Assembly: GCA_965219095.1 (NCBI GenBank)
Contig: OZ244719.1
Coordinates: forward strand, 384,001-448,000
Reading direction: 5' to 3'
Source of the DNA: Bdellovibrionales bacterium
GTDB taxonomy: Bacteria; Bdellovibrionota; Bdellovibrionia; Bdellovibrionales; UBA1609
DNA length: 64,000 nt
The translations under genes were made by a program, and so were the position numbers. Shown here one piece after another: positions 27,277 through 52,541 of this stretch. Below the pieces are notes generated by a model. It searched no databases. It had not been told where the DNA came from and saw nothing but the letters and a program-made list of their open reading frames with translations. Numbering within the stretch: the first letter of the stretch is position 1; every line of letters starts with the position of its first letter.

Positions 27277-27777
27277 ATGAAAAAAATACAAAAAATAAAA
27301 AAACAAAAGGGGTTCTCGCTCATCGAGTTGATGGTTGTTGTAGCCATTATAGGAATTCTTGCAGCAGTTGCCATTCCTGCATTCGATGGGTTTAGAAAAA
27401 AAGCACGAAGCGGTGAAGCTAAAACTAACTTAGGGGCTCTTTATACAGCAGAAAAAGCTTTTCAGTATGAAAGCACAGGGTATTGCCATAATCTTAACAT
27501 CATAGGTTTTGATAAACCTGATGGAGCAACCCATTACACAATTGGCTTTAATACTGCACTTACAACACTACCGTCAGGGTGTGTGACAGGTGGAGCAAGT
27601 GATCTGGCACATGAAAATACTGTAGGCACGAAAACTTCAGCTATTGCAAGAGCAGCATGTAAAATAGATAATAGTGTGAATCCCCAGAAATTTACAGCTT
27701 GTGCAGAGGGGAACTCAGGCCAAACCAGTGTTCAGAAATGGGAAATCAAGCAAGACAAAATATTAACAGCATATTAA
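27277..27777 (+). CDS. pilA: type IVa major pilin (complete copy, variant A)
   Basis: Basic leader, G|FSLIELMVVVAIIGILAAVAIP with E5; AGGAGG RBS; C-terminal Cys pairs. Confidence 0.93.
   Translation: MKKIQKIKKQKGFSLIELMVVVAIIGILAAVAIPAFDGFRKKARSGEAKTNLGALYTAEKAFQYESTGYCHNLNIIGFDKPDGATHYTIGFNTALTTLPSGCVTGGASDLAHENTVGTKTSAIARAACKIDNSVNPQKFTACAEGNSGQTSVQKWEIKQDKILTAY
27347..27454 (+). repeat. 108-bp perfect direct repeat copy 1 (putative attL core region, inside pilA)
   Basis: Identical to 39989-40096 by base-by-base reading. Confidence 0.95.
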
Positions 27778-27803
27778 CTTTCTAAGTTTAAAAAACTTTT
27801 CTT

Positions 27804-27831
27804 AAAACCCTCTTTTTTTAGAGAGGGTTTT
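27804..27831 (+). terminator. intrinsic terminator after pilin variant A (probably bidirectional)
   Basis: AAAACCCTCT / AGAGGGTTTT stem. Confidence 0.75.
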
Positions 27832-28037
27832 AATTTTTACTTTCAAAAAATCCCTTAAACTTTCCACTGCTAGAACTTCTTTCACGCTCTACTTTATGAG
27901 TGATATCTTAGCTATTTTAGTGAGAAGTCGTGATTTCCGTCGTGAGTTTTTCATTCCAAGTGTTCCTGCTAGAATTCTTTTTTTAAATTTTAAAAAATTT
28001 TAAAATTCAACTACCAGTATCCTTTTGATCCTAAAGT

Positions 28038-29237
28038 TCATTTTGTCTGTAAAGACGTCGTGATCTGTCGTGATGGAGATGAACCTAAAGAGTTCATTTC
28101 ATACATCTGAGCTGTTTTTTCTGCCATATCCGAGTTAATGAGAGCCACCACTTTTGCATACCTTTGAGTCATAGCTTGATCCTTATGCCCAAGACTTGCT
28201 TGGACAGCTGAGAGGCTTTTTGTCGCCATTAAAGCCATTGTGGCATAAGTATGACGGCAAATATGAGTTCCTCTCCAAGGAAGATTGCAGGTCTTAAAAG
28301 ACTTATCAAAGGCCCAACGAATGGTAGTGTAAGGAACGACCTTTCCTTCTGAAGAGTAAAACACAAGAGGATTATTAGATTCCTCTTTCATTTCATACAA
28401 AAGCTCTATGAGCTTTTCAGGAAGAGTTAAAACTCTTACAGAAGTCTTAGTCTTTGTGGTTTCTAGAATTTGAGGTTTTTCAGAAGACCAGTCAGCTGTT
28501 CTAACAACTCTTGCAAAACGATTCTTAAAATCAATTTCACTCCACATAAGTCCACAAGCTTCACTTACTCTCGCTCCTGTTAAAATCATAAACTGAGCTA
28601 AACGGTAATAAACAGGGTTTTGAATCTTCTTAAGTTCGTTAAGCCAAGCCCTCACCTCTTCAGGTTTAGCAAAGTAATCTGGCCTTTTCACCTTAGATTC
28701 TCGCTTCTTCACATAACACCGATTTCTATGACCACGAACAATAGGAAAGCTAAAGCTTGGATCAAGGTAGTTTCTCCACCAGTGAAGAACAGAGCCAAGA
28801 CGCCTTAACTCTATTCTAAAAGAATGGCGGTTGACAGTGTTTTTAAAGCTTCTAAAAAGCCAGTCAATCCAAGTGTCAATACTGACATGGTCTATATCTG
28901 ACATTTTTGTTTTTGCTAAAGGACTTTGTAGAAAAAACCTCTCGCAAAGAAGTTGAATCTTCTTTTGACTGGAATCTCTTAAAGTAGGAACATACTCTTT
29001 AAGATACCTTCTCACACAGTCTTCAAAGAAAAGTTCTCTTAACTCTTCTTGAAGAGAAACTCTTCCTTCTTGAAGACGTTTTTTTTCCTTATCGTGCCAT
29101 ATACAGGCTTCTGTTTTTGTTTGAAAGCTTTTTGCTTTCAGACGAATTCCTCTTACATAAATTTCTGCTTGATATGTTATTTTATTTTTCCTTTTACGTT
29201 TGGTTATTGACATGATTTCTCCTTTTGTTGAAGCCAT
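28038..29237 (-). CDS. tyrosine recombinase/integrase 1
   Basis: TGARVSE, HICRHTY, LGH, TQRY catalytic motifs; arm-binding-like N-terminus. Confidence 0.95.
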   Translation of the reverse strand: MASTKGEIMSITKRKRKNKITYQAEIYVRGIRLKAKSFQTKTEACIWHDKEKKRLQEGRVSLQEELRELFFEDCVRRYLKEYVPTLRDSSQKKIQLLCERFFLQSPLAKTKMSDIDHVSIDTWIDWLFRSFKNTVNRHSFRIELRRLGSVLHWWRNYLDPSFSFPIVRGHRNRCYVKKRESKVKRPDYFAKPEEVRAWLNELKKIQNPVYYRLAQFMILTGARVSEACGLMWSEIDFKNRFARVVRTADWSSEKPQILETTKTKTSVRVLTLPEKLIELLYEMKEESNNPLVFYSSEGKVVPYTTIRWAFDKSFKTCNLPWRGTHICRHTYATMALMATKSLSAVQASLGHKDQAMTQRYAKVVALINSDMAEKTAQMYEMNSLGSSPSRQITTSLQTK

Positions 29238-29461
29238 CTATGGATACTGTCTTTAAGAAAGTAAGTCCTTCTTCTGAACTGAATAAAGGGGATTTGTCTT
29301 AAACTCACCCAATTTTTAATCGTTCTAGGAGACAGCCCAAACGCTAAGGCTAATTCCTCTACGGTTATTAAATTGTCAAAGAACAGGCCCTTTTTTTGAG
29401 GGCGAATAGTGTTCTCTAAACTACTACCTTTTTTAATTGGTTTCAATTCTTTTTTATCCAT
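29204..29461 (-). CDS. excisionase-like HTH_17 protein
   Basis: LITVEELA..GLSPRTIKNWV...IPF; overlaps integrase start. Confidence 0.85.
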   Translation of the reverse strand: MDKKELKPIKKGSSLENTIRPQKKGLFFDNLITVEELALAFGLSPRTIKNWVSLRQIPFIQFRRRTYFLKDSIHRWLQQKEKSCQ

Positions 29462-29780
29462 TTTTTTCTCCTTTCAAAATATGGCGAAGAAGCTTAAAAA
29501 ACTTCCTCATTTGGTTTCTTCTAAGAACTCTGACTTTTCCTCACTGAATATGATGAATTTACGCACTCAAAAAAGTGTCGTAAATTTTACTTTTCTTGCT
29601 TTGCATTATGCTACTCCTTTCATGATTGATTTGTTATTTGTTTTTTGACCTTTTTTTTTACTCCTTTCTCGGCCATTAAAAAAACTCAAGTTAAACTTAA
29701 AAAAACAAAAATTTTTTAACCTGATAGAGAAAATTTTTAATTTAAAAGTTCTAAAAATTTTCTCTATTTTTTCCTCCTCT

Positions 29781-29947
29781 CACACCCCCCTTTCCTCTTC
29801 CCACATCTATACACCCAACTCTGTGGTACCGTGACCACCCTCTCCCATACTAAAAAAAGTATGAGCGGGAGAGGGTGGTCACGGTGAAAACCGAAGGTTT
29901 TAGCAGAGTTGGGTGTATAAAGACAAAGGGAAAAGGAAAGGGGGTGC
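29781..29947. other. nested inverted repeats / large hairpin (element 1)
   Basis: 19-bp perfect IR ACCGTGACCACCCTCTCCC within IR TATACACCCAACTCTG within an imperfect outer IR. Confidence 0.8.
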
Positions 29948-29999
29948 ATGCAAGACATGTTTTTAGCACTATAAGAAAATTCCAGAATTTTTTTAAAAC

Positions 30000-30748
30000 T
30001 ACTCATAAAGCTCACTCCTTTAAGCTAAAAATTTGAAACAAATCTTGTGAGGTTTTGATCTTATCAATGAGTACAGCCTGACCTACTTTTAAGCTCTTAA
30101 AAACATCATGTTCGATCTTCATTTTTTTGGTCTCCAAAAGATTCCCTAAGCCTGTTTTTTTAAGTTCCCCAGAATGCGTTCACTGACCTGAAAACTCCTA
30201 CCTACAGTGCCCCTAGTGACAGCTGTAAAAGCCCATTTTTCGAGAGTCCTCTTCACATCTTGTCGAAGTATGATTTTAGTGGCCGCACTTCCCAACACTT
30301 GATTGCTAAAACTCTGACTTACAACATTTAAATCAGCTAAGCCTTGGCAAAATAAGTGAACTCCTGTACCAGCAGATCTTACTTGCTTTAAAAAATCTGA
30401 AAAATCAGGTGTAGCAAAAGATCCAAATTCATCAATCAAGACCCCTAAAAGTAAAGGCTTAAAATCCACTTGTCCTGATTGAATCTGAGAGCTTATAACC
30501 TTTAGATCTTGAACTAGAATTTTACCGATTTTCTTACCTAAAAAACCATAGCTGTTTAAATTCAACTGGAAATAGGCTATTTGATTTTTTTTCATAACAT
30601 CCAGGAGATCGATTTCTTTTTCTTCATGTATAGAGGAGTTTCTAAATTCTGGAGAAGTAAGGGTCTGGATTTGAGCTTTTAAGCTTACAAGGTTTTGAGG
30701 TGCTTCTATCTTCATAAGAACTCTTTTTTTGTTTTTTGCTTCATACAT
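30000..30748 (-). pseudogene. truncated, frameshifted VirD4/TraD-like coupling protein (paralog of 42747-44342)
   Basis: IAYFQLN, QDLKVISSQI, IDEFGSFA, VHLFCQGLADL; no N-terminus or Walker A. Confidence 0.85.
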
Positions 30749-30852
30749 ACTCCTTTCTTTTTGGTTTTATAAAAAGGACTCTTTTATAAAACCTTTTGCT
30801 ACAATAAAGTTTTAAATGAAAAAAAAGGTTTTTCTTGTTTTTTTTTGAAAAG

Positions 30853-31001
30853 TTGCATATTTGTTACAAATTTGCTGAATCCGATACATTTGTAACAGAT
30901 CTGTTACAAATGTAACAAATATGCAATTTTGTAACAGATATGTTACATTTGTAACAAATATGCAAATTTATAACAAATATGCAACATTCAAACAACATTC
31001 A
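30853..31001. repeat. array of TGTAACA/TGTTACA heptamers with a 30-bp perfect palindrome
   Basis: 7 exact heptamers plus a variant; palindrome at 30885-30914. Confidence 0.85.
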
Positions 31002-31207
31002 AGTCTGTATTTCTTTCAAACAGATTCTTAAAAACGTGCATATATGAAAACAATAGCTTGGTTTTTAGAGAAATTTAAAGAAAACAGATCAATATCTTTA
31101 CTTTATATTACCTAACTGCTCTTTTAATTTAAAAAAGGTCTTTCTAGGAACCCTCAGGATTCTTGTTTTTTCATTCCGCACCTTTTCTTCTCTTTCTTTA
31201 AGATTTT

Positions 31208-32739
31208 GTAACTGCTCACCTACATTGTTCAGTTATCCCTAACTTTAGACCTGTTTTAAGATAAAAGTCTTGCTCTTACAGATTTTCTTTTAAATACTCT
31301 TTTCAAATGACAATAAATAAGACCTCCATCAGAAATGAGATTGAAAATATAAGAAGTGACTTTGATAAGCTTGCAAAGAAAGGTTCTGTGCCTACTGAGA
31401 TTTCTGTGATTGTTGAATCTCTCTTTAAGGTTGTGAACATTCTGATTGTTGTGTTTTTAGAAAAACAGGTTCGAAAAAATTCCAGCAACAGCGGTCTTCC
31501 TCCTTCGCAAGATTTTAGTCGTCAAGGGAATCGTAATAAGAAAGCTAGTGGGAGTCAGAAAAAGGGCTCTAGACTTGATAACAGTAAAGATACAAACAGT
31601 GAGGAGACTGTCTCTCCCTCAGAGTGTTCTCAGTGTGGGATGTGTTTAAAGACAGCAGAGGTAAAAAGCCTTGAGAAGCGTAAAAAGATTGATATTTTTT
31701 ATGAAATTCAGACCCATACTGTAACTTCTGAAGTTAAGGATTGTCCCTCATGTGGAGCTAGAAATAAAGGTCAATTCCCTAAAGGTATGAGTGGTCCTCT
31801 TCAGTATGGTATAGGCATTAGAGCTTCCATCATCAATTTCATTATAGTTCAGATGCTGTCTTTTCAACGTGTTGGGGAACATTACATGGGGCTTATAGGT
31901 CGAATGATTTCTCCTGCAGTTATGTTGAGATACATTGCTGAATTAGGAGAGTTTCTTAAAAGTTGGGAAGAGCAGATGAAAGAAAAGATACTTGAATCAG
32001 AGGTCATTCATGTTGATGAGACCTCTATGAGGGTTAAGGGTAAAAACTACTGGATTCATACTTATAGTTCAGGAGAATTAGTCTTGCAGTTTCTCCACCT
32101 TTCACGTGGAAAGGAAGCCATAAAAGATATTGGTCTCTTGGATAGATATGGAGGAGTGCTTGTGCATGATTGTTGGAGTCCTTACTTTTGTTATGATAAG
32201 ATAACTCATGCTTTGTGTGTGGCTCACCTTTTGAGAGAGCTTAAATTTATAGAAGAAAGCAATGGATTCAAATGGGCTACAAATCTCAAAAAACTTCTTA
32301 AAGAGACTGTGGAGTTAGTTCATAAAAAAGAGTCAAGAGTTCTGACTCAAAAAGAGTACGAAACTCTTCAGAGAAGGTATAGGAGTATTCTTACAAAAGG
32401 CTTAAAAGAGCTTCCAGAATTTCCTAAGAAAAATGGCAAGAAAGGACGAATAAAGCATACACAAGCTCAAAACCTTTGGCTGCGATTTAAAAAGTATGAA
32501 GCAGAAATACTGTACTTTGCTAAAAGAAAGAACGTAGATCCTACTAATAACAGAGCTGAAAGAGATCTAAGAATGACTAAAGTGAAAAAGAAAGTGTCAG
32601 GGTGTTTCAGAACAGAAGAAATGGCGAAATATTTTTGTCGTATTACCAGCTATGTTAAAACAATGAGAAATAAAGGGTATTCTTCTTTAGAAGCCATCTC
32701 TATGGCTTTAAATAAAAACTTACGAGAGTGAGCAGTTAC
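31208..32739 (+). mobile_element. single-ORF IS66 family element (ISBst12-like), copy 1
   Basis: GTAACTGCTCAC IRs; 8-bp TSD AAGATTTT. Confidence 0.93.
31307..32731 (+). CDS. IS66 transposase
   Basis: KNSSNSGLPPS, Zn finger, HVDET, LCVAHLLREL, TNNRAERDLR. Confidence 0.95.
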   Translation: MTINKTSIRNEIENIRSDFDKLAKKGSVPTEISVIVESLFKVVNILIVVFLEKQVRKNSSNSGLPPSQDFSRQGNRNKKASGSQKKGSRLDNSKDTNSEETVSPSECSQCGMCLKTAEVKSLEKRKKIDIFYEIQTHTVTSEVKDCPSCGARNKGQFPKGMSGPLQYGIGIRASIINFIIVQMLSFQRVGEHYMGLIGRMISPAVMLRYIAELGEFLKSWEEQMKEKILESEVIHVDETSMRVKGKNYWIHTYSSGELVLQFLHLSRGKEAIKDIGLLDRYGGVLVHDCWSPYFCYDKITHALCVAHLLRELKFIEESNGFKWATNLKKLLKETVELVHKKESRVLTQKEYETLQRRYRSILTKGLKELPEFPKKNGKKGRIKHTQAQNLWLRFKKYEAEILYFAKRKNVDPTNNRAERDLRMTKVKKKVSGCFRTEEMAKYFCRITSYVKTMRNKGYSSLEAISMALNKNLRE

Positions 32740-32747
32740 AAGATTTT

Positions 32748-32926
32748 AATGTAATACAGCAAATAAAATGAATGTTTTTGAGTTCAATCACCGGAGGTGA
32801 TAGAGGTCAGTAAGGCCTCAAAGAACTCAAAAATACAAGACAGGATGTCTTACTCTTGCTTTGATTAATATGAGCTCTTTTGGGGGATTTCTACTACTTT
32901 TTACCCACAGATTCCCTGGAGGAGCC
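32748..32926 (-). mobile_element. solo left-end remnant of ISL3
   Basis: Matches about 15690-15880, ending CCCACAGATTCCCTGGAGGAGCC. Confidence 0.8.
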
Positions 32927-32931
32927 TATTA

Positions 32932-34450
32932 GCCTCCTCAAAAGAATCTGTGGGTTTCCGGAGGTTCTGGCAGTTTTCCAAGGTTATGATATAAGGCGAT
33001 TTTTATAGCTTTAGAGGTTCTAAAGCCGTAAGATTTTCTCATAGTGAGTTTTACTTTGTTGTTTAAACCCTCTACAATCCCTGAGGAGAAGGTTTTTTTA
33101 GCCTTGAAGTAATTAAGAATAAGTAGCTTATGTCTTCGTATGGTTTTTGCTTCTCTTTTCATAGGTTCAATTTTTGAAAGCATGACTCGTTTCGTCCAAC
33201 TGTCTATAAATTTACCAGCCCAAGTTGGTGAAACATAGGTCCATAACTGTCGGAAGTCTTCTTTTAAAAAATAACAGCGGATACTTTTTAAATTGTACTG
33301 TATTAAATGCCTTAATTTTACTTTCTCATAAGATTTTAAATTTTCTGCATTTTTTAACAAGGGCCATCTAGCTTTTGTTAAAAGGGGTTCATACCCGTCT
33401 TCTTTCATTTTTTTGTGTTCTGAAGCTCTCACTTCGTCTAAAGCCTTATTGAGTCTTGCTACGATATGAAACCGATCTAATATATTCAAAGCTTGACTTG
33501 CCCTTTCCTTTATTACTTTTAAATAGGGCTTCCACATATCAGAACACACAAACTGTATATCTTTTGACTTCTCTCCTAGTAAATCAAAGAATTTTCTAAA
33601 ACTCTTTTCTGTTCTTTTTTCTCCTATCCATAGCAAACGAACACTTTCTTTGCTTATTTCATAGACTAAGGTGAGATACTGATGGTTCTTTTTCCATTGT
33701 ATTTCATCTACACCTATAGCTTGTATTCCCTTTAAAACCCTTTGTTTTAAACCATATTCTACGACCCATTCTACCGAAGCATAGACCTGATTCCAACTGA
33801 CCTGAAACTTACAAGAAACCTCTTTCCAAGACAGGTGACGACACCAGTCAGCTAAGTACTTCATGTAAAAAATTGTTAGGTTTTTCTTCCCATCTGCCCA
33901 AGGTAAATACTCAACTTTTACTCCACAGCAAGAACAATTAACTCTTCTTACAAAATAAACAAAAAACACCCTGTAACTTAAAATAGGAAGGGATTCAAAG
34001 TCCCGTGATGATTTACTGCTGTCATACACTGAACAGGGCTTCTTACAAACACTACAAAAAGCTTGGCCATTTTTACGAGCCTTAATAGGAACATTAATTG
34101 ACTTTCTATCTTTTGAAAAATAAATGTCTTCGTACACAAAAGACTTCCATCTTAAACAATCATTTAGTATAGTCTTCAAAAGCATCTCTTCCCTCCTTTT
34201 TTTTTTTTTGAATAACATTTTAAGGCATCTGGGAAGTAGGTGCTTCTTTTTTAAAATTTTAATGTAACACAGCAAATAAAAGCAAATAAAATGAATGTTT
34301 TTGAGTTCAATCACCGGAGGTGATAGAGGCCAGTAAGGGCCTCAAAGAACTCAAAAATACAAGATAGGATGTCTTACTCTTACTTTGATTAATATGAGCC
34401 TTTTTGGGGGATTTCTACTACTTTTCACCCACAGATTCTTTTGAGGAGGC
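32932..34450 (-). mobile_element. ISL3 element copy 2 (transposase 32938-34185), no TSD
   Basis: Nearly identical to copy 1; both ends read GCCTCCTCAAAAGAATCTGTGGG. Confidence 0.92.
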
Positions 34451-34582
34451 AAAAAAAGAAGTAAGCCCTAAGAACTACTTCTTTTGAATCTAGATAAATT
34501 AATGCTCATCTGCTCTCATAATTGCAAGAAGTCTTGAAACCTCATTTTCATTGGATGGAAGATGCATGTAGAAAAAGTAATT

Positions 34583-35161
34583 TTATTTCTTTTCCGTTCC
34601 TCTGAACTTTTCATAAAAACACTCAACATTATAGATATCAAGAGAAGTGAAAAAAAATTTATCATTCATTGTTGCATTTAAAAACTCACATAACTTGAAT
34701 ATTTGATTATTTTTTATCTCGTAAAGGTGATTTTTGTCTTCTGCTTGCCTTATTTTAGAAACAGGCAAGTTTAAAAAGTCTGCTAATTGCTTTCTCGTTT
34801 TATTTTCTCTCAGCCTCATTTCTTTTATTTTATAAGATATGCAAAATCTAAACATTTTATCTAATTTTTTATTCTTATAGCTTCTGGTCTTGTTTTTTTT
34901 GACTGTAACCACCTTGATGTCATTCAATTTCTCTTGCATTACGAGAAACTTCGTAGCTTTTTTTATATCAATTTTATATAATTTTATTAGACTCATAAGA
35001 GTTTTTTGCGAAAAAGAAGAAAGCCCTCTTTCTAACTTTGAAAGCATATTTACGTTAATATTACTCAAAGCCCTAACTACATCTTCTTGGCTTAAACCAT
35101 TTTTTATCCTTTTGTGTCTAAAATATCTTCCTATGTTTTTATTTTTCGGATTTATTTTCAT
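34583..35161 (-). CDS. tandem XRE-family HTH protein
   Basis: RIKNGLSQEDV...LSKLERG plus a second HTH similar to 63039-63353. Confidence 0.75.
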   Translation of the reverse strand: MKINPKNKNIGRYFRHKRIKNGLSQEDVVRALSNINVNMLSKLERGLSSFSQKTLMSLIKLYKIDIKKATKFLVMQEKLNDIKVVTVKKNKTRSYKNKKLDKMFRFCISYKIKEMRLRENKTRKQLADFLNLPVSKIRQAEDKNHLYEIKNNQIFKLCEFLNATMNDKFFFTSLDIYNVECFYEKFRGTEKK

Positions 35162-35182
35162 ATTTTTTTCTATTCATTAATT

Positions 35183-35599
35183 TTACTTTACTTTGCTTAT
35201 TTGATCTCTGCCTTTTTTCGATAGGCTCAAATAAATTTCAGTTATACCTCTTACAATCATTTCTTCAAAAGAACAAACAATGAACTTATGATAATACATA
35301 GTACGATCTCTTTTCTCATCTTCTGTTTCTTTAGAAATTTTCGGAGCAAGAATAATAATTTGATTGTTTAGAGGATCAAGAAAAACCTCTTCTCTTTCTA
35401 TCTTAGTAGAGAACTCAATTACTATATGTTTATGAAGATCAGATAAAAGATAAATACTTTTATTTTTTTTTGTAAAGCCTTTTTTAAGAGCATTTATAAT
35501 ATTTGTTCTTACAGTTTTATAATGTTGAATATCATTAAATACTTCGTGAGGTAAATAAAACGGATAAAAGCTATAGGCTGCTTTTTTCTTCTTTCCCAT
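35183..35599 (-). CDS. hypothetical protein
   Basis: 138-aa ORF with GGAGG RBS. Confidence 0.55.
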   Translation of the reverse strand: MGKKKKAAYSFYPFYLPHEVFNDIQHYKTVRTNIINALKKGFTKKNKSIYLLSDLHKHIVIEFSTKIEREEVFLDPLNNQIIILAPKISKETEDEKRDRTMYYHKFIVCSFEEMIVRGITEIYLSLSKKGRDQISKVK

Positions 35600-35738
35600 A
35601 ATCCCTCCAAAATTTTAAAATTTAAAACTAAATATATATTAAAGTATATAGTTTGAAAATTTCAAACTAATATGCGTCGCATCATATGTTTGTCGAAAAT
35701 GAAGAGTGTACTCTAATTAAAATATAAAAGGAAATTTT

Positions 35739-36188
35739 ATGAGAAAAAACTCCTTATCAGATAAAGAATGGAATAAGCTTGTCTCTAATTTTTTGAAAGA
35801 GATTTTAACTTTTCACGCTAACAATCATGGGGAATTAGTAAAATTAGCTAAAACTGTAAGTAAGAGCAAAAGTACGCTGACCTACATGAAGAAAAACGGT
35901 AAAGGGCAAATAGTTACATGGGTGAGAATTTTATTCTACACTATAGGTATTAACGATCTTAAAGCACAAAAGATTTTAGAAAGCCCAAAAGCTCTATTTA
36001 AAGGAATAAAAGAACCACCAGTTATTGATATACTTGTTGAAAAGCTAAAAGAAATTTATGATGAAAAACATTTAGCCACTTTATTTCGTATGATGATAAA
36101 AAAAGGTGTTGTAGAGGAATATCATAGTTTAAACAAAAAGAAGAGAAAAAAAGGAAAAAATAAAAAAAGAAATAAGCTGAAAGCCTAG
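35739..36188 (+). CDS. hypothetical, possible HTH regulator (divergent from 35183-35599)
   Basis: LAKTVSKSKSTLTYM HTH-like segment. Confidence 0.5.
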   Translation: MRKNSLSDKEWNKLVSNFLKEILTFHANNHGELVKLAKTVSKSKSTLTYMKKNGKGQIVTWVRILFYTIGINDLKAQKILESPKALFKGIKEPPVIDILVEKLKEIYDEKHLATLFRMMIKKGVVEEYHSLNKKKRKKGKNKKRNKLKA

Positions 36189-36473
36189 TTCTTTTGATGT
36201 TATCTAAGATACACTGTGTCGCTTTTTGAGCTTGTGCAAAAGTTTTAAAGATAACTTTTTTTGATGGAGAGATATTTTTCTTGCTTGACTGACTGGTCAT
36301 CCATATGAGTATGTCAAGAAAAAATCAGTTACACAATTTAATTTACAGTGCCTAAGATATTTAATTCTAATTTTAGATCATACTCAATTTATGTTCTTGT
36401 CAATGAATTAAGCATTTGAAGCAGCATATAATTTTAGGCTACTGCTGAACTCAGGCTACAAATTACAAAAACT

Positions 36474-39400
36474 TTATTGTTCACGGACGACTATTTTATA
36501 GCCTTTAAAGTCTTTTGATCTTTGATACTCAAGCCTCTCAAAAATCTTAATCCATACTTTTTCTCTTAAATGGTCTTCTTTTTTGGCAATTTTATTGAGC
36601 CAATTCGGAGGGTTTTTTGTTAAATTTGTGATCAACTCATTATTTTCAGAAAATGATTGTATATCCATGTGAAAAATATCTTCTACAGAGTCTTTGTCTG
36701 TGTTTTTTGGTGAAAATTGAATAAGTTTCCCCACTTTTGATTTATTTAAGATTAAAGCTTCAGAACGTAGGTTTTTAAGAAAGATTCTAAAAACTGGAAT
36801 CTTGATATCACTAAAACCGTACCATCCAGCAAAGCTCCTTACCTTTTCGATTTTAGAAACAGTTTTTATATTTTTTGGTTTAAATCTTTCTGACCTGTCT
36901 AAATAGGTATAGAAAAATTCATTTGATGTAAGAATAAATATCTCATCCTCTTTAAAGGATTCTTTAGCTTTAAATAATGCAGGATCTAAATCTTTCCCAG
37001 GAATTTTTTCACAACCCTCTGAAATAGCATCAAACAGGCATTGATTTTCTGCAACACAGAGTCCTCTTCCATAGCTCTCTCCCTCTAGTATGTGATGCTG
37101 ATAATCATCTTGAAGAAAGACATCCTTATCAACAACTTGGCTAATACCCATACGTTCTATATCATTTTTAATTACACTTAGTTTACCTATGTATTCCTTT
37201 AAATAACTTTTAAATACGTTACGAACACTTGTATGTTTATGAAAGGGCTTCACTAATTCTTTCTTGAACTCCAAGACCTTGTCTTGGGAAATTATAGCCT
37301 TCCTTTTTTATCTTACTTTATTTTCCATGTACCTTTGAAAGATGCCGTCAAGCAATTTCTCGAATTTCTTGGCATTATTACTAATGTCCTCTGTGGTTAA
37401 AATAGAGTCCCAATTAGCAGGATTTTTCTGTATATCATCTAAGATTTCTTTTAAAGAGTGATGAATATCTACCAAGAGGGACAAGTCCTTTTTTGATAAG
37501 TCTAATTGAGCGTTATTTTGATTCGAATCCGATAGTAGTTGAAGCATTGTAGAAATATAAAACTTTTTCAAATTTGTAGGTGTTTCTGACAACTTGATCT
37601 GTTCTCTTTTTGTTGGATCAAATTCCCACCGACCCCATTGCCAAAAATCTGTGAAGTCGTAGCTTTTTATAGCCGCTAAAAATATAAGTGTAAAATCTTT
37701 GATGTTTCTTGGGGGAAAAATTGATTGTAGAGAATTATAACACTCCAACATTATTGTATTTGGCCTTCTTTTTAAAATTTCACTCATTATCCAGCTAGAT
37801 AAACCAAAAAACATCTCTTTTTGCCTCAAGAAAATCTCATTTTCCATACGAATTTTATCTCTCTGTCCTTCTAGTTTAGATCTTTCTTCTTTATTTAAAG
37901 AACTTTTTTTCAATGTTAATTCTATGCCTTCTTCCTGAAAAGAAAGGGAATCAAAAATATCTAGAGATGTTTCTTTGAATTTTCTAAAGCTTTCGAAATC
38001 ATTATTATCGAAAGATTTTTTAAGTAAGCTTTGAAAAATAAAAAAGAAGAAAACAACAAAGTCTTTCAAACTTTTAAAGTCTGGCTCTTTGTGCGTATCA
38101 TTCCTCCACTTAAATTCAATGTAAATTTCACAAGATTTTCTAAGAGAATCTGCTAATTTATTAACACAGGATTTTCTTAGATTTTCATCGTCTTCTTTCT
38201 TTACCGATTCATAGATAAGAGGTGTGAGAGAGATAAACTCTTGAAACAGTAGATGATCATTTTTTTTAATGGAGTTCCGCAAAATGGCTATGGGTAAATA
38301 CATAACTTTATCTATAATCTTCTGATTGTGACTTTCCGCTGCTGTTTCAATTAAAATTCTTACATCACTAGATAGCCATTGCAACTCATCCCAAGGCCCA
38401 TAAAATGAGAGTCTCTCACTTCGAGAATCTTGAGAGGAGTAATTACCACAGCTTTTTTCAATAGTTTCTAAAAAACTTTCAGCAAGCTCAATATAAAGGC
38501 TTCGAAGCTCTTGTATTTCTCTTAAGTTCTTATTGTAAATCGCATGAGTGAACTGATCTCTAACGCTAGAAATTTCATCGTACACTTCCTTAGTAAAGGT
38601 TTTAAATTCATTCTCTGGAGTAATAGTAAAAGTCTTTGTAACAAGTGATTTGATTTTATTACAGATTGTCTGCTCTTTCACAAGGTTTTTGTCAACACAG
38701 ATTAAACTTTTATCGTCTTCACTAACAATGTCATTAATTTTTTTCATTAGATAGCACTTCTCTTCTCTGAATACTACGTTTCTATGATCACTATCATTAT
38801 CAATGTCTGGCTGGGCTTCTTTTTTAAAGGGAAGCTCTTTTCTTTTTCCTTCTTTTTTTATGACGTCTGAAATTTTTATAAGAGAACTTGTATCAATTCT
38901 GGAGACTATCCCAAGTTTTTCAGAGGAGAAACAATAATAACCTTCTTTATTAATAGGGGAGAATGTTAAGCAAGTTTTTTTAAGTTCTGAAAAGAGATTT
39001 AAGGTATCTTCTCTTTCTTTGATTTCTAAATATATGTTTTTTCTTAAAAGATTTTTAAATAGTTGAGTTCTTTTCTGGAGAAACTTATGTCTAAACAAAA
39101 GCACTGAAATTGTTCTTGTTAAAGAATATATAGTTAAAAGGCCGATTATAAATATAGAAAGTATGCTAAAAACATTCACACTGCCAAAAATAAAAATGAA
39201 GAAAACAAGTATTTCAGCTGTTACAAGAGGGTACAAAAAGCTTTCTTTCAAAAGAACTCGTGCCATATCTTTAGTTCTATTGTCGCGTAAGCTTTCTGCT
39301 ATAAAAATTATTAGTGCAAAAATAATCACTCCAATTCCAGAATGAATTGCAATTAAATTTTGATAATGATTGCTTTCCTGAGATATACATAAAAAATTAA

Positions 39401-39590
39401 AGGAACATGCTAAATGATGTGCATAGTGAGAAAGAACAAAAAAGATGAGAACCATTATAAACACAAAGAAAAATGATTCCCAGGTTGGCATATAAGACTC
39501 AGAAAAAACCCTTTTAAGATATCTTATTATCTTTAAATATATGATTTTGATACGTTGTACTAATTTATGTTCAGTCATATGATGTGTCAC
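36474..39590 (-). pseudogene. large membrane-anchored hypothetical protein split by one in-frame TAA (ORFs 37308-39590 and 36474-37274)
   Basis: About 4 N-terminal TM helices; both ORFs in the same frame, reading KVR*KRKAIISQDKVLEFKK. Confidence 0.65.
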
Positions 39591-39988
39591 TTTTCGATAG
39601 CCATGCTTAGTAAGGATAAGCTCACAAGAACTGATCTTTCAAGAGTAACGCTCTTTTTAACGCAAAGGTTAGGCTAATAGCATACTTTTTTAAGGGATGT
39701 CGTCAATTGATTTGATGTGACAACCTTGCCCCTAAGAAAAGGGTGCGCAAGGGTATCAAGAAAATATGAATTAACAACCAAAACTTCCCTACAAAAGAAA
39801 TTAGAGTTTATTTTTAATCAGAACTATCGTGATTTTCATATGCGTTCGTGTACGGAGTTTTGTCGTGATCAACTAGGTTCAATGTAGGGGAAAAGTCTTA
39901 ACATTCGGGAATAGATGGGTAGGTTAATTTATTATTTTCTTTTTGTTTTTTAGTGATTCTGCAAACTTACAAAAGTTTACAAATCAAG

Positions 39989-40096
39989 TTATAGGAATTC
40001 TTGCAGCAGTTGCCATTCCTGCATTCGATGGGTTTAGAAAAAAAGCACGAAGCGGTGAAGCTAAAACTAACTTAGGGGCTCTTTATACAGCAGAAA
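39989..40096 (+). repeat. 108-bp direct repeat copy 2 (attR of element 1 / attL of element 2)
   Basis: Identical to 27347-27454. Confidence 0.95.
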
Positions 40097-40416
40097 GAGC
40101 CTACTTTTATGAAGATGATAAATATTCAGACGTCCTAGCTACTATAGGATTTGAGAAACCTTCTGGAACACGCCACTACGCTATTGGTTTCACGGGTAAA
40201 GTGGGAGATAATTATTTCGGTGCTGGAACTACTGCCAAGGGTACAGTCACAGCCACACCTGCAACTTCAACAGTAGGAACAACTATGGCTGCTGCTAATT
40301 GCAAAGCAGGTACTTCTACTTTTAAAGCTTGTGCAACTGGAACTACAAATACTTCTGGCGATTGGAGTATAGAGCAGAACAAGGTCCTTGCTGAATGTTC
40401 TAGTAGAGGCTGTTAA
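39991..40416 (+). pseudogene. 5'-truncated, presumably silent type IV pilin cassette, variant B
   Basis: Starts at IGILAAVAIP with no leader, cleavage site or clear RBS; open, divergent C-terminal domain ending AECSSRGC. Confidence 0.92.
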
Positions 40417-40454
40417 TAAATAATCATCCAATAGAACTGTTTAGTTTTGTCTTG

Positions 40455-40490
40455 AAAGAACTCCTCTTTAAAAGAGGGGTTCTTTTTTTT
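40455..40490 (+). terminator. intrinsic terminator after pilin variant B
   Basis: AAAGAACTCCTCTTT / AAAGAGGGGTTCTTT followed by T-run. Confidence 0.8.
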
Positions 40491-40600
40491 GTTTTTCATC
40501 CTCAAAAACCCTTACAAATTTTAAGCCTATCGTGATTTCTTTCATAAGTTTTTCATCCCAAGTTTTCCTGCTAGAACCTTTTTGTCAAAATCTTTACAAT

Positions 40601-41803
40601 TCAACTGCTAGGATCACTTTCCCTTATCCTTAATGAGGACTCATTTAGGGTCTTTTGAGGGTGCGTAAGTGATTTTGTAAGTGATTTCGATTCGTACATG
40701 CTAGCCGTTCTTTCTGCCATATCAGAATTTATTAAAGCTACCGCTTTAGCATACCTTTGAGTCATAGCTTGATCTGTATGCCCAAGACTTGCTTGCACAG
40801 CGGAAAGACTTTTTGTCGCCATAAGTGCCATTGTGGCATAAGTATGACGGCAAATATGAGTCCCTCTCCAAGGAAGATTGCAGGCCTTAAAGGACTTATC
40901 AAAAGCCCAGCGAATGCTTGTATAAGACACCATTTCACCTTCTCTTGAATGAAAGACTAAGGGATTTTCGGGAGACTCACTTTTCATAACCCTTAACAAC
41001 TCCACAAGTCTCTCTGGAAGAACCAAAAGCCTGTTAGATGCTTTCGTTTTAGTGTCTTCACAGAGAGTTATTTTGTTACCTCCCCAATCAGCTGTCCTTA
41101 CCACACGTACAAATTTTTCTTCAAAGACAACTTCTTTCCACAAAAGCCCACAAGCTTCACTCACTCTAGCTCCTGTTAAAATCATAAACTTTGCCAGTCT
41201 ATAATAAACAGGGTTAGATATTTTCTGAAGCTTTTGAAGCCAAAGCTGTATTTCTTCTGGTCTAGCAAAGTAGTCAGGTCGTCTTAGTTTTTGAGTTGTC
41301 TCGTAGCAAATGTCTCTATGCATTTTCACTACAGGAACAACAAAGCTTGGATCAACGTAATTTCTCCACCAGTTTAGAACAGCTACAAGTCGCCTAAACT
41401 CTGTTTTAAAACTCTGTCTTTGTCTACACTTCTTAGTTTTCTTTTGAAACCAAGAAATCCAAAGGCTTATCTCCTTTGCCTTTAAGTCTAACATCTTGAC
41501 TTTATTTAAGGGGCTGTTAACTGAAAGATTTTTCAGATTCAATAAGATTTTTCTCTGGCTGGAAGCTCTCAGTTTAGGCAGATACTCTTTGATGTACTTT
41601 TCTACACAATCGCAAAAAAGCAATTCTTTAAGTTCTTTTTCTTCTATAGTTTCACCTTTTTCAAGGCGATCTTTTTCTCTATCATGCCAAATGTAAGCTT
41701 GAGTTTTGTTTTCAAAAACTTTACTCGAAAGCCTCACTCCTCTGACATACACTTGAGCTTGATAGACGTTCTTTTTTTTTCTTTTAATTTTAGTTACAGA
41801 CAT
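40601..41803 (-). CDS. tyrosine recombinase/integrase 2
   Basis: Same catalytic motifs as integrase 1; near-identical C-terminus. Confidence 0.95.
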   Translation of the reverse strand: MSVTKIKRKKKNVYQAQVYVRGVRLSSKVFENKTQAYIWHDREKDRLEKGETIEEKELKELLFCDCVEKYIKEYLPKLRASSQRKILLNLKNLSVNSPLNKVKMLDLKAKEISLWISWFQKKTKKCRQRQSFKTEFRRLVAVLNWWRNYVDPSFVVPVVKMHRDICYETTQKLRRPDYFARPEEIQLWLQKLQKISNPVYYRLAKFMILTGARVSEACGLLWKEVVFEEKFVRVVRTADWGGNKITLCEDTKTKASNRLLVLPERLVELLRVMKSESPENPLVFHSREGEMVSYTSIRWAFDKSFKACNLPWRGTHICRHTYATMALMATKSLSAVQASLGHTDQAMTQRYAKAVALINSDMAERTASMYESKSLTKSLTHPQKTLNESSLRIRESDPSS

Positions 41804-42072
41804 GATTTGAACTCCTTTCGTTCAATCCATTGCTGTAAGCGAGAAGACCTAAAATAAACCTTTCGGCCTATTTTTACATAAGGGATTTTCCTTAAAGAAA
41901 CCCAATTTTGTAAAGTCTTCTTAGATAAACCTAAATTTTCTGAAAGCTCCTCAATAGTTATTAAATTGTCAAAGAACAAGCCCTTTTTTTGAGGGCGAAT
42001 AGTGTTCTCTAAACTACTACTTTTCTTGATTGGTTTCAATTCTTTTTTATTCATTTTTATTTCTCCTTTCAA
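41794..42072 (-). CDS. excisionase-like HTH_17 protein
   Basis: LITIEELSENLGLSKKTLQNWV..KIPYVKIGRKVYF. Confidence 0.88.
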   Translation of the reverse strand: MKGEIKMNKKELKPIKKSSSLENTIRPQKKGLFFDNLITIEELSENLGLSKKTLQNWVSLRKIPYVKIGRKVYFRSSRLQQWIERKEFKSCL

Positions 42073-42119
42073 AATATAACGAGGGAGCTTAAAGCTCCCT
42101 CATTTGGTATTCTAAGCCT

Positions 42120-42347
42120 TTAAAAGGGCATTTCTTCTGTATCATTTTTCTGCTCTTTTTTTGGTATTCTTTCTATAACCACAAGCTCCCCTGAGACAGG
42201 CAAGCTTGTGAGCTTCAAAGAAAAACCGTTTTTGTTCTTTAAACCAAAGGCTACACCTATTCTTTGGTAGTCCACTTTTTCGTTTCCCTGAGAGTCTTTA
42301 TAAGCTCTGACTGAGAGTGCGTCATAAATTGTAGTTTTTAGTTTCAT
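42120..42347 (-). CDS. small putative ssDNA-binding protein
   Basis: RIGVAF..KNGFSLKL.SLP core; acidic tail DTEEMPF resembling the SSB C-terminal motif; AGGAG RBS before MKLKTT. Confidence 0.55.
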   Translation of the reverse strand: MKLKTTIYDALSVRAYKDSQGNEKVDYQRIGVAFGLKNKNGFSLKLTSLPVSGELVVIERIPKKEQKNDTEEMPF

Positions 42348-42507
42348 TTCTACTCCTTTCCTTATTGATTTACATCCTTTCTTGAGCTTCAAGAGAGGAC
42401 AGTGCGGAGAGCTTATAAAAGTTCGTCCGCAGATTTAACAAACAGAAAATTTTTTTAAGACTAGCTTTAAAAAAATTTTCTTTCCTTTCCTTTTCCACCA
42501 ACCTACT

Positions 42508-42740
42508 ACCCAACCCAACCACTCACACCACACATCACACACCACATCTACCAGAGAGATTAGAAAGTGAGTTAGGGTGGTCAAATCTTAAATCCAATGA
42601 AAACAAGACCTTATCAAAGGGCCTTATTACGCCCATTCTTACGACTTGTTGAAAGGATTTAAGATTTGACCACCCTAACTCACTTTCGTCACCACAGGCA
42701 CACAGTAGTGATGGGTTATAAAAGAGTGGTTGGGTTGGGT
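42508..42740. other. nested inverted repeats / large hairpin (element 2)
   Basis: 33-bp perfect IR 42563-42595 / 42655-42687 inside 17-bp IR 42508-42524 / 42724-42740. Confidence 0.85.
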
Positions 42741-42746
42741 GTCTTC

Positions 42747-44342
42747 TCATTTCTCCAAGCCTTTCTTCTTTTTTTCTTTAGCATTGTAAACTTGAAGCAA
42801 AATTTGCTTGTTTTGAAGTTTATCAATAAGAAGAGCTTGACCTCTTTTTAAAGACTTAAAAACATCAAAATCCACTTTCATCTTTTTGGTGTTAAAAAGT
42901 GAACCTAAGCCTGTTTTTTCAAACTCGCTTAACATCTCTTGTGATGACACTTGAAAGGTCATAGCTTTATCTTCTATAGTTCCACAAACAGAAGACCATG
43001 TTTCACAGTCTTGAGGGACATCTTGACGGAAGATCAGCTTATAAGCAGTGTTACCTAAAATCTGATCCGAAAACTCAGAAGATACAGCTTTTAAATCAGC
43101 CAAGCCTTGACAAAAAAGATGAACCCCTATGTTAGAGCTTCTGATCATTTTAAGAAGGTCGCTAAAATCTTTTGTTGCAAAAGAACCAAATTCGTCAATA
43201 AATATCCCTGCAAAGTTAAACTTAGGAGCTATTTGTCCTGCATGAATTTGACTGCTTATAACTTTCAAGTCTTGCACAATCATTTTGCCTAAACGTCTTG
43301 CAAAATCACCATATCCGTTTGTGTTCAGTTGAAAATAAGCCACCTGACCTTTTTCCAAAATCTCAACTAAATCAATTTGACACTTTGAAGAAGAAAGAAG
43401 ATGAGAAAACTCTCTAGAGTTTAAAATCTCAACCTGAGCTTTTAATCCTGCAAGGTCTTCTTTTTTAATTTGAGATAAAGAAGCTACATCATCTTCCATC
43501 CCTTCCAGCTCTTTTTTCTCCATAAATTCTTTGTGAGAGTTGTTGAGGGCTTGTTTTAATTCTTTAAGATTCATTTTCTTTTTTAGAGCTTCAAAACAAG
43601 AAAGCAAGATAGAAAGATACTGACTGGCTTGTGAAGCATAATAATCATGAGTAAAACTAAGGCCAAGCATCAGTTTCGACCTCACTTGTTCACTTGTTCC
43701 ATACTTCAAAGGATCGTAGGACAAGCTCTTTTCAGGCTGTGCAAGAGAAAAAAGCTTAAAGTCTTCCTCTTTTCTTCCTAACTCACAAAAAAGGAATTTT
43801 ATCATCTCTATGTCCTTTATTTCCCCCTTAGGATCAAGGATCACAAGAGGGTGTTTATGCAAAAAACTGTGCCTCAGTAAATTCATCATCAAGGTTGTTT
43901 TTCCTGTGCCTGTTGCTCCTGTAACAAGTAAATGCTCTGTTCTAGAACTGACAGGTAAACTTACAAGCTCTTTTTTGACAAAATTGGCTCCTATAGGAGC
44001 TGAGTCTTTAGACTCAAGAGCCTTCTCAAAAGTTTTGAAATCAACTTCTTCTCCCTCCAAATGATCCACTGTAATGCGTTTTTTGGATTTTATGTTCTCA
44101 TCCTTAAGCCAAAAATTACAAGTTATAAAAAGTAAAAAAGCCTGAAAGATCCAAAATACAAAAAGCTGTGCTAACCAGAAAAACAAAAGGTCTAAAACAA
44201 ATAAATGAAAAAGAGTCTCTAAAATGACAAGGCCAATAAAAATACAAATTATAAATTTATAGTTTTTCGCAAGCCTTTTAGAAGCATAAGGAGCTTTTTT
44301 AATCTCTTTATGTGCAATCACTCCCCCTAAAAAGAAAATCAT
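42747..44342 (-). CDS. VirD4/TraD/TrwB-like type IV coupling protein
   Basis: N-terminal TMs, HLLVTGATGTGKT, LDPKG, IFIDEFG, QGLADL, ILGNT. Confidence 0.8.
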   Translation of the reverse strand: MIFFLGGVIAHKEIKKAPYASKRLAKNYKFIICIFIGLVILETLFHLFVLDLLFFWLAQLFVFWIFQAFLLFITCNFWLKDENIKSKKRITVDHLEGEEVDFKTFEKALESKDSAPIGANFVKKELVSLPVSSRTEHLLVTGATGTGKTTLMMNLLRHSFLHKHPLVILDPKGEIKDIEMIKFLFCELGRKEEDFKLFSLAQPEKSLSYDPLKYGTSEQVRSKLMLGLSFTHDYYASQASQYLSILLSCFEALKKKMNLKELKQALNNSHKEFMEKKELEGMEDDVASLSQIKKEDLAGLKAQVEILNSREFSHLLSSSKCQIDLVEILEKGQVAYFQLNTNGYGDFARRLGKMIVQDLKVISSQIHAGQIAPKFNFAGIFIDEFGSFATKDFSDLLKMIRSSNIGVHLFCQGLADLKAVSSEFSDQILGNTAYKLIFRQDVPQDCETWSSVCGTIEDKAMTFQVSSQEMLSEFEKTGLGSLFNTKKMKVDFDVFKSLKRGQALLIDKLQNKQILLQVYNAKEKKKKGLEK

Positions 44343-44368
44343 AAAAAGTATATTGAAACTTTTTTCTT

Positions 44369-44800
44369 ATGAAGATCAACAGAGATTTTGCTTTTTTAAA
44401 TAACTTAGATTCATTATTGACTTATAATAGCATTGGAGTTCTTGAAGCCGCTCGTCTTTTAGAACTCAATAAGAATACTATAAGCACTTTCCTAAACGGT
44501 AAAAGTCATATAAACTCTCATGATTTTATGAGAGTCCTTAAACTAGCAGGCATTAACTTAAGGGCTATTGTGAGAGATGAGTTAGAAAGAAGAGAGCAAA
44601 GTGATACCCCTATAGGAGAAGACATGGAGCTTATTTTAAAGGGGCTTTCAAAACATGACAAAAGATCGATTCTTAAAGATGTTATAGCTTCTAGTGAACG
44701 TTGTGCTGATAAAAATAAAACCATAGAAAACTCACGCACAAGATTAAAAGAACACCTGCAAGAGATGAGGTATAAAAGAAAGCAGGCTAAATTATGTTAA
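44369..44800 (+). CDS. XRE-like HTH regulator
   Basis: AARLLELNKNTISTFLNGK. Confidence 0.7.
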   Translation: MKINRDFAFLNNLDSLLTYNSIGVLEAARLLELNKNTISTFLNGKSHINSHDFMRVLKLAGINLRAIVRDELERREQSDTPIGEDMELILKGLSKHDKRSILKDVIASSERCADKNKTIENSRTRLKEHLQEMRYKRKQAKLC

Positions 44801-45342
44801 AAGTAAAACAAAGCATTCAAGAAAGAGATAACATGCTTTTAGAAAATTGGCTTTGTGATCCCTTTTGGCCAGAACTTCATGCTCACCTCACAATAGAAAG
44901 CCTTCCCGCTTCACCACAAGTCGTAGCAGAAACCTTCTCTGTAACCTTAGAAGAAGCTACAGATGCTATTGACGGATTAGAGGAGTTAGGCTTTCTTGTC
45001 AAAGAAGGGAGTTTTTATAAAGCTGGGAAGAGAAACTTTGTCATCACAAAAAAAGAAATCACAAAAAATCAGGCCATACATCAACATATTTTAAAAACAA
45101 GATACCTCTTAGCTCAAATAAAACCTGAAACTATAGAAAAAATCTCAAATTATACAGTGGCCTGTAGTAAAGAAGCTATGAATAAATTTAAACAGGATTT
45201 TGATAGGATTATCTTTGAACTTCTTGAAAGTTCAGAAAACTCTTTAAAAAATGAAGAAAAATCTGAAAAATCTATTTATAACATAAATTTAGGCATAATA
45301 AAAACGTCTAACATAAAACCAAAAGGAGAAAATCATGGCTAA
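44794..45342 (+). CDS. DUF4423/TIGR02147-like winged-helix protein
   Basis: wHTH (EEATDAIDGLEELGFL) and C-terminal IYNINLGI strand. Confidence 0.55.
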   Translation: MLKVKQSIQERDNMLLENWLCDPFWPELHAHLTIESLPASPQVVAETFSVTLEEATDAIDGLEELGFLVKEGSFYKAGKRNFVITKKEITKNQAIHQHILKTRYLLAQIKPETIEKISNYTVACSKEAMNKFKQDFDRIIFELLESSENSLKNEEKSEKSIYNINLGIIKTSNIKPKGENHG

Positions 45343-52537: not shown

Positions 52538-52541
52538 ATTT

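Follow-up and report, generated by a model that had tools for sequence, protein, structure and literature searches.

We analysed a stretch of 64,000 nucleotides (nt) of DNA from a Bdellovibrionales bacterium (hereafter, the window), which corresponds to positions C1:384001-448000 of a 3.1 Mb genome in two contigs (C1 and C2). In this window, the type IV major pilin gene pilA is joined to what are very likely site-specific integrative elements of the tRNA-island type, in which the target of the integrase was switched to the pilin gene and each element carries the rest of that gene. The anatomy of the junctions, the structure of the pilin copies, the phylogeny of the integrases and the geometry of the genes were observed directly and are described below.

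According to this reading, an element would carry beside its integrase a promoterless and leaderless pilin copy, running from codon 24 to the stop codon and followed by a terminator. Recombination would occur between the first few bases of this copy and the identical sequence in the chromosomal gene. The chromosomal promoter, the ribosome-binding site, the leader and the first 12 mature residues would then be joined in frame to the pilin body of the element, and the previous body would be displaced to the far end of the element, where it would have no start and stay silent. Repeated insertions would stack the elements, with E1 (12.6 kb, body A, expressed position) ahead of E2 (25.5 kb, body B, Druantia genes). 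The integrase and the excisionase would remove the first element and restore the previous pilin. We infer integration and excision of this kind from the structures; pilA is presumably expressed, and a change of its pilin is presumably of importance to the cell.

The pilA junction and the 108-bp repeat

An exact direct repeat of 108 bp was found at window positions 27347-27454 and 39989-40096. A 29-nt piece of this repeat occurs twice in the window, while zero occurrences were expected (100 shuffles). The repeat codes for I-GILAAVAIPAFDGFRKKARSGEAKTNLGALYTAE and begins at the second base of pilA codon 24. Upstream of the repeat the DNA of the two copies is unrelated; downstream it is homologous but diverged, with 41% amino-acid identity between the two pilin bodies, A and B. 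These exact coordinates bear out the initial annotation of the region, which had described a perfect 108-bp repeat followed by strong divergence. The first copy lies in pilA (27277-27777), and the second one opens a pilin frame without a leader (39991-40416). The features of the two pilin loci are as follows.

27277..27346, plus strand: chromosomal head of pilA, with the start codon, the leader and the first 12 mature residues (MKKIQKIKKQKG/FSLIELMVVVAI); the sole such head in the genome; PF07963
27347..27454, plus strand: copy 1 of the 108-bp repeat, left junction of element E1, with the crossover likely near its left edge
27349..27777, plus strand: pilin body A, 142 codons and a stop, in frame with the chromosomal head
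27802..27833, plus strand: terminator-like hairpin after body A (hairpin search)
39989..40096, plus strand: copy 2 of the 108-bp repeat, right junction of E1 and left junction of E2
39991..40416, plus strand: pilin body B, 141 codons, headless and in a silent position, with an intact frame and 4 Cys
40454..40486, plus strand: terminator-like hairpin after body B (hairpin search)

By its position behind the head, body A is the version that can be expressed. Its amino acid sequence recurs with 100% identity in another element of the genome, E5, beside an identical integrase. Nucleotides 1-61 of pilA had no other match anywhere in the genome.

The assignment of pilA to the type IVa major pilins was made from several observations. 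The class III signal peptide was recognised by the N-terminal methylation motif PF07963 (N_methyl, E-value 1.2e-10) and by TIGR02532, above its cut-off. A profile made of 19 sequences (the bodies and their relatives) matched PilA 8tj2, a type IV major pilin of solved structure, along its entire length (positions 7-160) with an E-value of 1.7e-36, a match that includes the homologous globular head domain. Body B by itself gave matches to Pilin_PilA and Pilin_GH, both below their cut-offs. The AlphaFold model of PilA had a mean predicted local distance difference test score (pLDDT) of 57. In this model a helix spans residues 15-76, with mean pLDDT of 73-92 until about residue 60 and falling values after it, and the globular domain (residues 81-166) scored under 50 and is unreliable; only the N-terminal helix is trustworthy. 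The assembly machinery expected for such a pilin is also encoded in the genome, namely prepilin peptidase (Peptidase_A24, n=2), pilus ATPases (T2SSE, n=7) and secretins (n=3), all over their cut-offs.

An array of pilin bodies and elements

In the genome as a whole the repeat has 10 copies, nine within C1:411347-506772 and one broken remnant on C2. Five of the C1 copies are on the plus strand (411347, 423989, 449479, 468284 and 473893) and four on the minus strand (474871, 483036, 500776 and 506772). The leader is present in only one copy of the 10, the one at C1:411277 (window 27277). The eight other C1 copies, all within 97 kb, are headless, have intact frames and start at the identical nucleotide. 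Seven of these eight are preceded by one of two or three conserved sequences of about 80 nt, which we read as the far ends of the preceding elements; the eighth, the outermost, abuts a fragment of an insertion sequence (IS).

The nine C1 bodies make up eight distinct versions, 31-75% identical in the variable part. All of them are open frames of 129-148 codons with exactly 4 Cys each, in a genome of 33% G+C. A convergent integrase with an excisionase stands beside seven of the nine bodies. Among these integrases, int1 occurs three times (100% identical), int2 three times (99-100% identical among themselves), and one more is 75% identical to int1. We thus describe the array as seven elements, E1-E7, of 5.6-25.5 kb. 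The remaining two bodies, E and F, have no integrase and lie tail to tail where the two orientations meet, between inverted repeats. The elements seen in the window, E1 and E2, belong to this larger, two-armed and IS-scrambled array. Their ends and recombination genes are listed below.

28038..29237, minus strand: tyrosine integrase int1, 399 amino acids, convergent on pilA; PF00589, E-value 2.7e-21
29204..29461, minus strand: excisionase-type helix-turn-helix (HTH) protein of E1, 85 amino acids, overlapping int1; PF12728 HTH_17, E-value 1.2e-11; TIGR01764 excise, E-value 3.7e-6, slightly under the cut-off
39909..39988, plus strand: far end of E1 ('type 1'), conserved and abutting the repeat; the same approximately 80 nt stand before four repeat copies and a related version before a fifth
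39989..64000 and beyond, plus strand: element E2, 25,490 bp, which ends at genome position C1:449478 and is followed by the next repeat and pilin body
40601..41803, minus strand: tyrosine integrase int2, 400 amino acids, convergent on body B; PF00589, E-value 2.1e-20; 63-64% identical to int1
41794..42072, minus strand: excisionase-type HTH protein of E2, 92 amino acids, overlapping int2; PF12728, E-value 1.1e-13

The initial annotation had placed a terminator, a convergent integrase and an excisionase gene after each pilin, and we located the hairpins and the PF00589 and HTH_17 genes at both loci. Its estimate of a 12.6-kb element agrees with the 12,642 bp that we measured for E1. Both int1 and int2 belong to the tyrosine recombinase/phage integrase family (PF00589). 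In an alignment of the three integrase types, residues R223, H325, R328, H351 and Y360 are invariant; the pattern R, H-x-x-R, H, Y we take to be the catalytic motif of tyrosine recombinases. The int1 gene has three copies in the genome, 100% identical. The parts that define a gene-restoring integrative element are present, that is, end repeats (the 108-bp repeat at both ends of E1), an integrase beside the rebuilt target and a directionality factor.

The comparison of E1 with E5 indicated where the pilin body belongs. E5 is a silent copy in the inverted arm, while in E1 body A is fused to the head. The two are 99.73% identical over the first 3,720 nt, a segment that includes the repeat, body A, int1 and the excisionase gene. 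Since the identity extends across the body and the integrase, the body belongs to the integrase end and travels with the element. On the other hand, E2 and E5 have far ends that agree at 99.7% right up to their last base, yet different bodies follow them. We had considered a crossover downstream of the pilin stop codon, which would put the headless body at the far end of an element. This alternative was rejected, since E1 and E5 share the body along with the integrase, the far ends of E2 and E5 precede different bodies, and the tRNA-linked relatives described below place the target beside the integrase.

Except for one base, the nine copies of the repeat agree over the first 63 nt, and body-specific differences appear from position 64 on. 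Where far ends are joined to non-pilin DNA, the repeat is retained for no more than its first 6 nt (C1:713278) or 11 nt (C2:1757452). These short remnants point to strand exchange near the left edge of the repeat, and we tentatively place the crossover there, in pilA codons 24-27. The remainder of the repeat would then be identical only because it encodes a conserved helix, a suggestion that we make with the same caution. Behind the junction at C1:713278 there are 2.8 kb of element DNA (96.9% identical to E4), and behind the one at C2:1757452 there are 0.57 kb (93.7% identical to E2/E5). These two loci may be secondary-site insertions or relatives with another target.

Besides the array itself, we observed several scattered remains. 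The broken remnant on C2 (C2:2315434-2317659) has the repeat from its fifth base, a pilin body with stops and a convergent fragment 92.6% identical to int1 residues 304-384. At its outer border (C1:506773-508100), the inverted arm ends in a patchwork of IS fragments, and the first 184 nt of this patchwork match the interior of a transposase gene at C1:230383-230566 with 97.8% identity. We looked in the intact IS copy for a pseudo-site that would match the outermost junction and discarded this candidate, as the continuation agrees with the core at 16 of 60 positions, the chance level. The load of the IS66 family is very high genome-wide, with scores of full and partial copies, 98-99% identical, on both contigs.

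Integrase relatives and alternative explanations

A survey of 109 genomes of the same family revealed homologs of the integrase (E-value at most 1e-60) in 19 genomes of four genera; outside the analysed genome the identity was at most 49%. An integrase tree was built from 41 rows, left from 48 after five with internal stops and two duplicate loci were dropped. In this tree the seven pilin-linked integrases form one clade with 100/100 support and a long stem, placed next to another integrase of the same genome that has no adjacent pilin. A tRNA gene was present near the integrase in 20 of the 27 homolog loci without a pilin match (18 of 25 after removal of two duplicate loci). At 17 of the 25 distinct loci, by comparison of coordinates by eye, the two genes face each other tail to tail, with the tRNA gene about 100-330 nt away from the stop codon of the integrase. 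In many of these tRNA-linked relatives, an excisionase gene and a TraD-like gene come after the integrase.

Because the pilin-linked clade lies inside a family of tRNA-linked integrases, the pilin body is seen to occupy the place of the rebuilt tRNA, in the same orientation. The clade would thus represent a switch of target within a family of island integrases, and we regard this geometry as the strongest argument for such a switch. The initial annotation had named integrase homologs at other sites, without pilin linkage, as an observation that would speak against its reading. Such homologs do exist, although only as distant ones, as expected in a family that changes targets. Its central claim, that an element inserts in pilA and brings a new globular body, with the newest element setting the pilin and the old body silenced, is upheld as an account of structure and history by the single head against eight headless bodies with the same start, by the far ends, by the E1/E5 pair and by the integrase clade.

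Outside this genome, the integrase alignment had matches at three loci in species genomes (46-47% identity), none beside a pilin, and the search of metagenome contigs gave no confirmed relatives. In a large protein collection, we found proteins from other assemblies that are 75% (P0004) and 74% (P0005) identical to int1 and 78% identical to int2 (P0007), along with three pilin frames that start inside the conserved helix (P0126, P0127 and P0129). The contigs recorded for P0126 and P0005 have the same length, 611,316 bases, and may be one and the same. Judging from these sequences, the element family is probably present in at least one other organism. Neither JGI metagenome contigs nor viral contigs contained a match to an exact 38-nt core pattern.

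A genome of another genus, G016 (1.5 Mb), showed an arrangement of its own. In the intervals 868-909 kb and 1261-1316 kb of its contig C1 (loci L035-L042), there are the five full-length major pilin paralogs of this genome, one of them broken, all at most 3 kb from an integrase of the same family. Four of the five paralogs are just upstream of a short integrase (300-331 amino acids) in the same orientation. The G016 integrases fall in the tree among the tRNA-linked ones, apart from the clade of the analysed genome.

The pilins were surveyed in the same family. A PilA match was present in 104 of the 109 genomes, with 114 further matches beyond those listed. Among the matches listed outside the analysed genome, all start at residues 2-11, that is, with a head, except for one that starts at residue 25, at the first base of its contig. 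The eight headless copies of the analysed genome start at residues 22-24. Most of the larger genomes of the family have one match; G024 (1.8 Mb) has 16 at E-value at most 1e-8, headed among the matches listed.

Several observations weigh against stacking by integration as the whole explanation. From about 35 nt past the stop codon, the backbones of E7 and E1 are 98.2% identical, and their bodies differ. Similarly, from a point about 100 nt beyond the stop, E2 and E3/E6 agree at 99%, and E2 has a different body. In these pairs body and backbone are unlinked, and therefore other recombination also moves bodies; the simplest mechanism for an exchange of bodies between elements would be homologous recombination between the repeat and the downstream region, both of which are conserved. 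E5 is a chimera that changes at an IS66 copy from E1 sequence (the left part) to E2 sequence (the right part). Given this chimera and the very many IS66 copies, part of the present order stems from IS-mediated rearrangement, and certain copies may have arisen in that way and not by fresh integration. Four repeat copies are inverted, and the outermost one abuts the interior of an IS transposase gene with no pilin head. The inverted arm and this IS-abutting end make simple stacking insufficient as an explanation; second-site integration, inversion by the integrase or IS66 recombination could have produced the arm and the tail-to-tail pair E/F.

Further points of this kind concern mobility and the evidence from other genomes and reads. 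No relaxase or mating-pore genes were recognised in Pfam scans of the open reading frames of the elements, in the window and in the rest of the array; the sole transfer gene recognised is that of a TraD/VirD4-like coupling protein. By these scans the elements do not qualify as self-transmissible integrative conjugative elements, which have relaxase and mating-pore genes, and may be mobilisable at most, or decaying. With its truncated TraD gene and two IS, E1 is consistent with elements that may be no longer mobile. Of the 10 flanking proteins that were compared with the pilA regions (20 kb each) of three relatives in other genera, none is shared. Three public runs of one study, available as short Logan contigs on window positions 26500-42500, break inside the repeat (e.g., at 27375) and cannot bridge it; no joint between repeats was listed, and these contigs, which end within the repeat, gave no direct sign of element activity and speak neither for nor against a circle, an empty site or the tandem order.

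With these points in view, we compared stacking by integration with other explanations. The headless bodies could be silent cassettes kept by the host, as in Neisseria pilS, and copied into the expressed gene by homologous recombination, with the integrases as bystanders. The leaderless intact bodies do share a conserved 5' block with the expressed gene, and the E7-E1 and E2-E3/E6 exchanges have their borders at the repeat and just past the stop, like those of gene conversion. Still, we find this explanation improbable, since seven of the eight headless bodies begin exactly at a conserved far end of an element (the eighth at an IS fragment), seven of the nine bodies are each accompanied by an integrase and an excisionase, arranged as in tRNA islands, and the matches listed from other genomes of the family include no headless copy except the one at the first base of a contig. 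A pilS-type store is free of mobile-element genes, which are present here. Conversion between cassettes may act secondarily on the stack, the origin of which it leaves unexplained. Inverted repeats bring to mind a different arrangement, a dedicated recombinase switch of the shufflon or Moraxella type, in which resident integrases invert or delete DNA between the nine repeats and the 'elements' are fixed parts of a switch of the host. Bodies E and F, tail to tail between inverted repeats, resemble a shufflon segment; five repeats are direct and four inverted, and, reasoning from the coordinates, inversion between the repeat at the head and any inverted one would fuse the head in frame to the body there. 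Such a switch has, in our estimate, little probability: the units are 6-25 kb long and are not short invertible segments, each of them brings an integrase, an excisionase and a gene for a coupling protein as well as variable cargo, with defence systems among it, and the relatives of the integrases are island integrases beside tRNA genes. Nor does the array consist of short segments with inverted sites served by one dedicated recombinase, as an R64-type shufflon does.

It could also be argued that the tandem and mirrored arrangement arose through misassembly, or through IS66/ISL3 recombination and nothing else, with one real integration only. The very many near-identical IS66 copies, the E5 chimera at IS66 and the short-read contigs that cannot bridge the repeat would fit such a view. 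We consider it extremely unlikely. The bodies come in eight distinct versions, the integrases fall into three types (100%, 75% and 63-64% identical to int1), and the cargo differs from unit to unit; duplication of one unit cannot be the source of these. Moreover, the junctions are at the same nucleotide of the repeat and not at IS ends.

Cargo, known systems and significance

Apart from the pilin and recombination genes, the following features were annotated in E1 and E2.

30146..30748, minus strand: truncated TraD-like coupling protein of E1, 200 amino acids; PF12696; 49% identical to residues 295-487 of the 531-residue copy of E2
31307..34314, no strand assigned: IS66-family and ISL3-family transposase genes inside E1; PF03050, PF01610; both multi-copy in the genome
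34583..39590, minus strand: cargo of E1, an HTH protein and proteins of 138, 149 (this one on the plus strand), 266 and 760 amino acids without a family match
42747..44342, minus strand: full-length TraD/VirD4-like coupling ATPase of E2, 531 amino acids; PF12696, PF10412, PF01935; TIGR03743 SXT_TraD, E-value 3e-28, below the cut-off
47018..57710, minus strand: Druantia type I genes in E2, with druE (47018-52537), druD (52542-53639), a gene for 948 amino acids (53602-56448) and druA (56469-57710)

The coupling protein has its full length in E2, while E1, E5 and E7 have truncated versions. Upstream of the truncated gene of E1 (window 30889-30994), there are two to three tandem copies of a 39-nt unit with a short palindrome (repeat families D13 and D16), which may be an origin of transfer or a regulatory site. 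The ISL3-family transposase gene is flanked by direct repeats of about 190 nt (32740-32931 and 34253-34455; 93-98% identical, with a spacing of 1,524 nt; D6, D9, D10 and D20), unusual for a simple IS insertion. ISL3 and DDE_3 transposases were also found in the window.

The Druantia genes were recognised by PADLOC models (DruE1, E-value 0; DruD1, 3.3e-89; DruA1, 1.7e-169) and by PF14236. The type I system is defined by DruA, DruB, DruC, DruD and DruE together, and the 948-residue product encoded between druA and druD matched no model. Also encoded in E2 are a Schlafen/AlbA_2 protein and one with a nuclease domain. The cargo of E3 includes an Eco57I-type methylase together with a PLD/SNF2 helicase. 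A cargo operon of E6 (C1:490997-494907) encodes a pentapeptide-repeat protein, a multiubiquitin protein, a prokaryotic E2, a ThiF/JAB fusion and a DUF6527 protein, that is, a ubiquitin-like conjugation system.

One may go further and ask whether the stack is a working and reversible pilin switch. Any two of the nine repeats (five direct, four inverted) would then be recombined by the integrase and the excisionase, and blocks would be deleted, re-inserted or inverted, with any of the eight bodies placed behind the head. Since some repeats are in inverted orientation, inversion by the integrase could in principle bring bodies of the inverted arm there. Together with the anti-phage cargo (Druantia, the restriction-type methylase with an SNF2/PLD helicase, and the ubiquitin-like E1/E2/JAB operon), the pilus, a likely phage receptor, would be changed and immunity added in one step. 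We regard this extension as rather doubtful.

Integrative elements are thought to restore the genes into which they insert. The islands at the 3' ends of tRNA and tmRNA genes have much in common with the pilin elements: the same integrase family, an excisionase and a TraD-like gene after the integrase, the target tail to tail with the integrase, a direct repeat that runs from the crossover toward the 3' end of the target, and tandem arrays at one site. The pilin elements differ in that the target is protein-coding and is cut near its 5' end, and the replacement, 86% of the coding sequence, varies between elements. With a replacement that differs from element to element, integration changes the product instead of restoring it.

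Integration into protein-coding genes has precedents. The lambdoid phage 21 and e14 integrate in icd. The dusA-specific integrases reportedly act inside the coding sequence and the gene is kept whole (PMC4482086), and SGI1 is reported to insert at the 3' end of trmE (PMC8409611). The islands that target dusA and trmE are the nearest described cases. The dusA, trmE and icd elements share with the pilin elements site-specific integration in a coding sequence and an element-borne piece that keeps the gene whole; there the piece is short and the protein stays the same, while here the whole exposed body of a surface protein is supplied, in eight versions.

Other systems also vary pilins. In the R64 shufflon, the tyrosine recombinase Rci swaps C-terminal segments of the PilV pilin at 19-bp sites on a plasmid. 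Like the pilin array, it combines a tyrosine recombinase, a constant pilin N-terminus and interchangeable C-terminal segments, and bodies E and F of the array have its tail-to-tail arrangement between inverted repeats. The R64 system has a single recombinase and short invertible segments, whereas the array is made of whole mobile elements with their own integrase and cargo, and most of its repeats are direct. The pilin inversion of Moraxella is carried out by Piv, which is not a tyrosine recombinase, and pilS works by RecA-dependent conversion. Gene conversion between pilE and pilS is described for Neisseria (PMC2188579). Both the Neisseria and the Moraxella systems have, as does the array, one expression site and silent partial pilin genes without the 5' end. 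Unlike the array, they are host-encoded and are not on integrase-bearing elements. The initial annotation presented such a phenomenon as one not known to be described; likewise, our full-text searches of the literature, judged by abstracts, found no description of integrases or islands targeting a pilin gene.

Pili are commonly phage receptors. In the Bdellovibrio group, they are reportedly used to enter prey (PMC3818213). As the piece with which the element restores the gene is the whole exposed and variable body of the pilus subunit, a major surface structure would be altered whenever an element is gained or lost. If this is true, surface variation would have a new route, with horizontal transfer as its driver and a tie to the cargo of defence islands, and a lineage of island integrases would have moved from tRNA genes to a target that codes for a protein.

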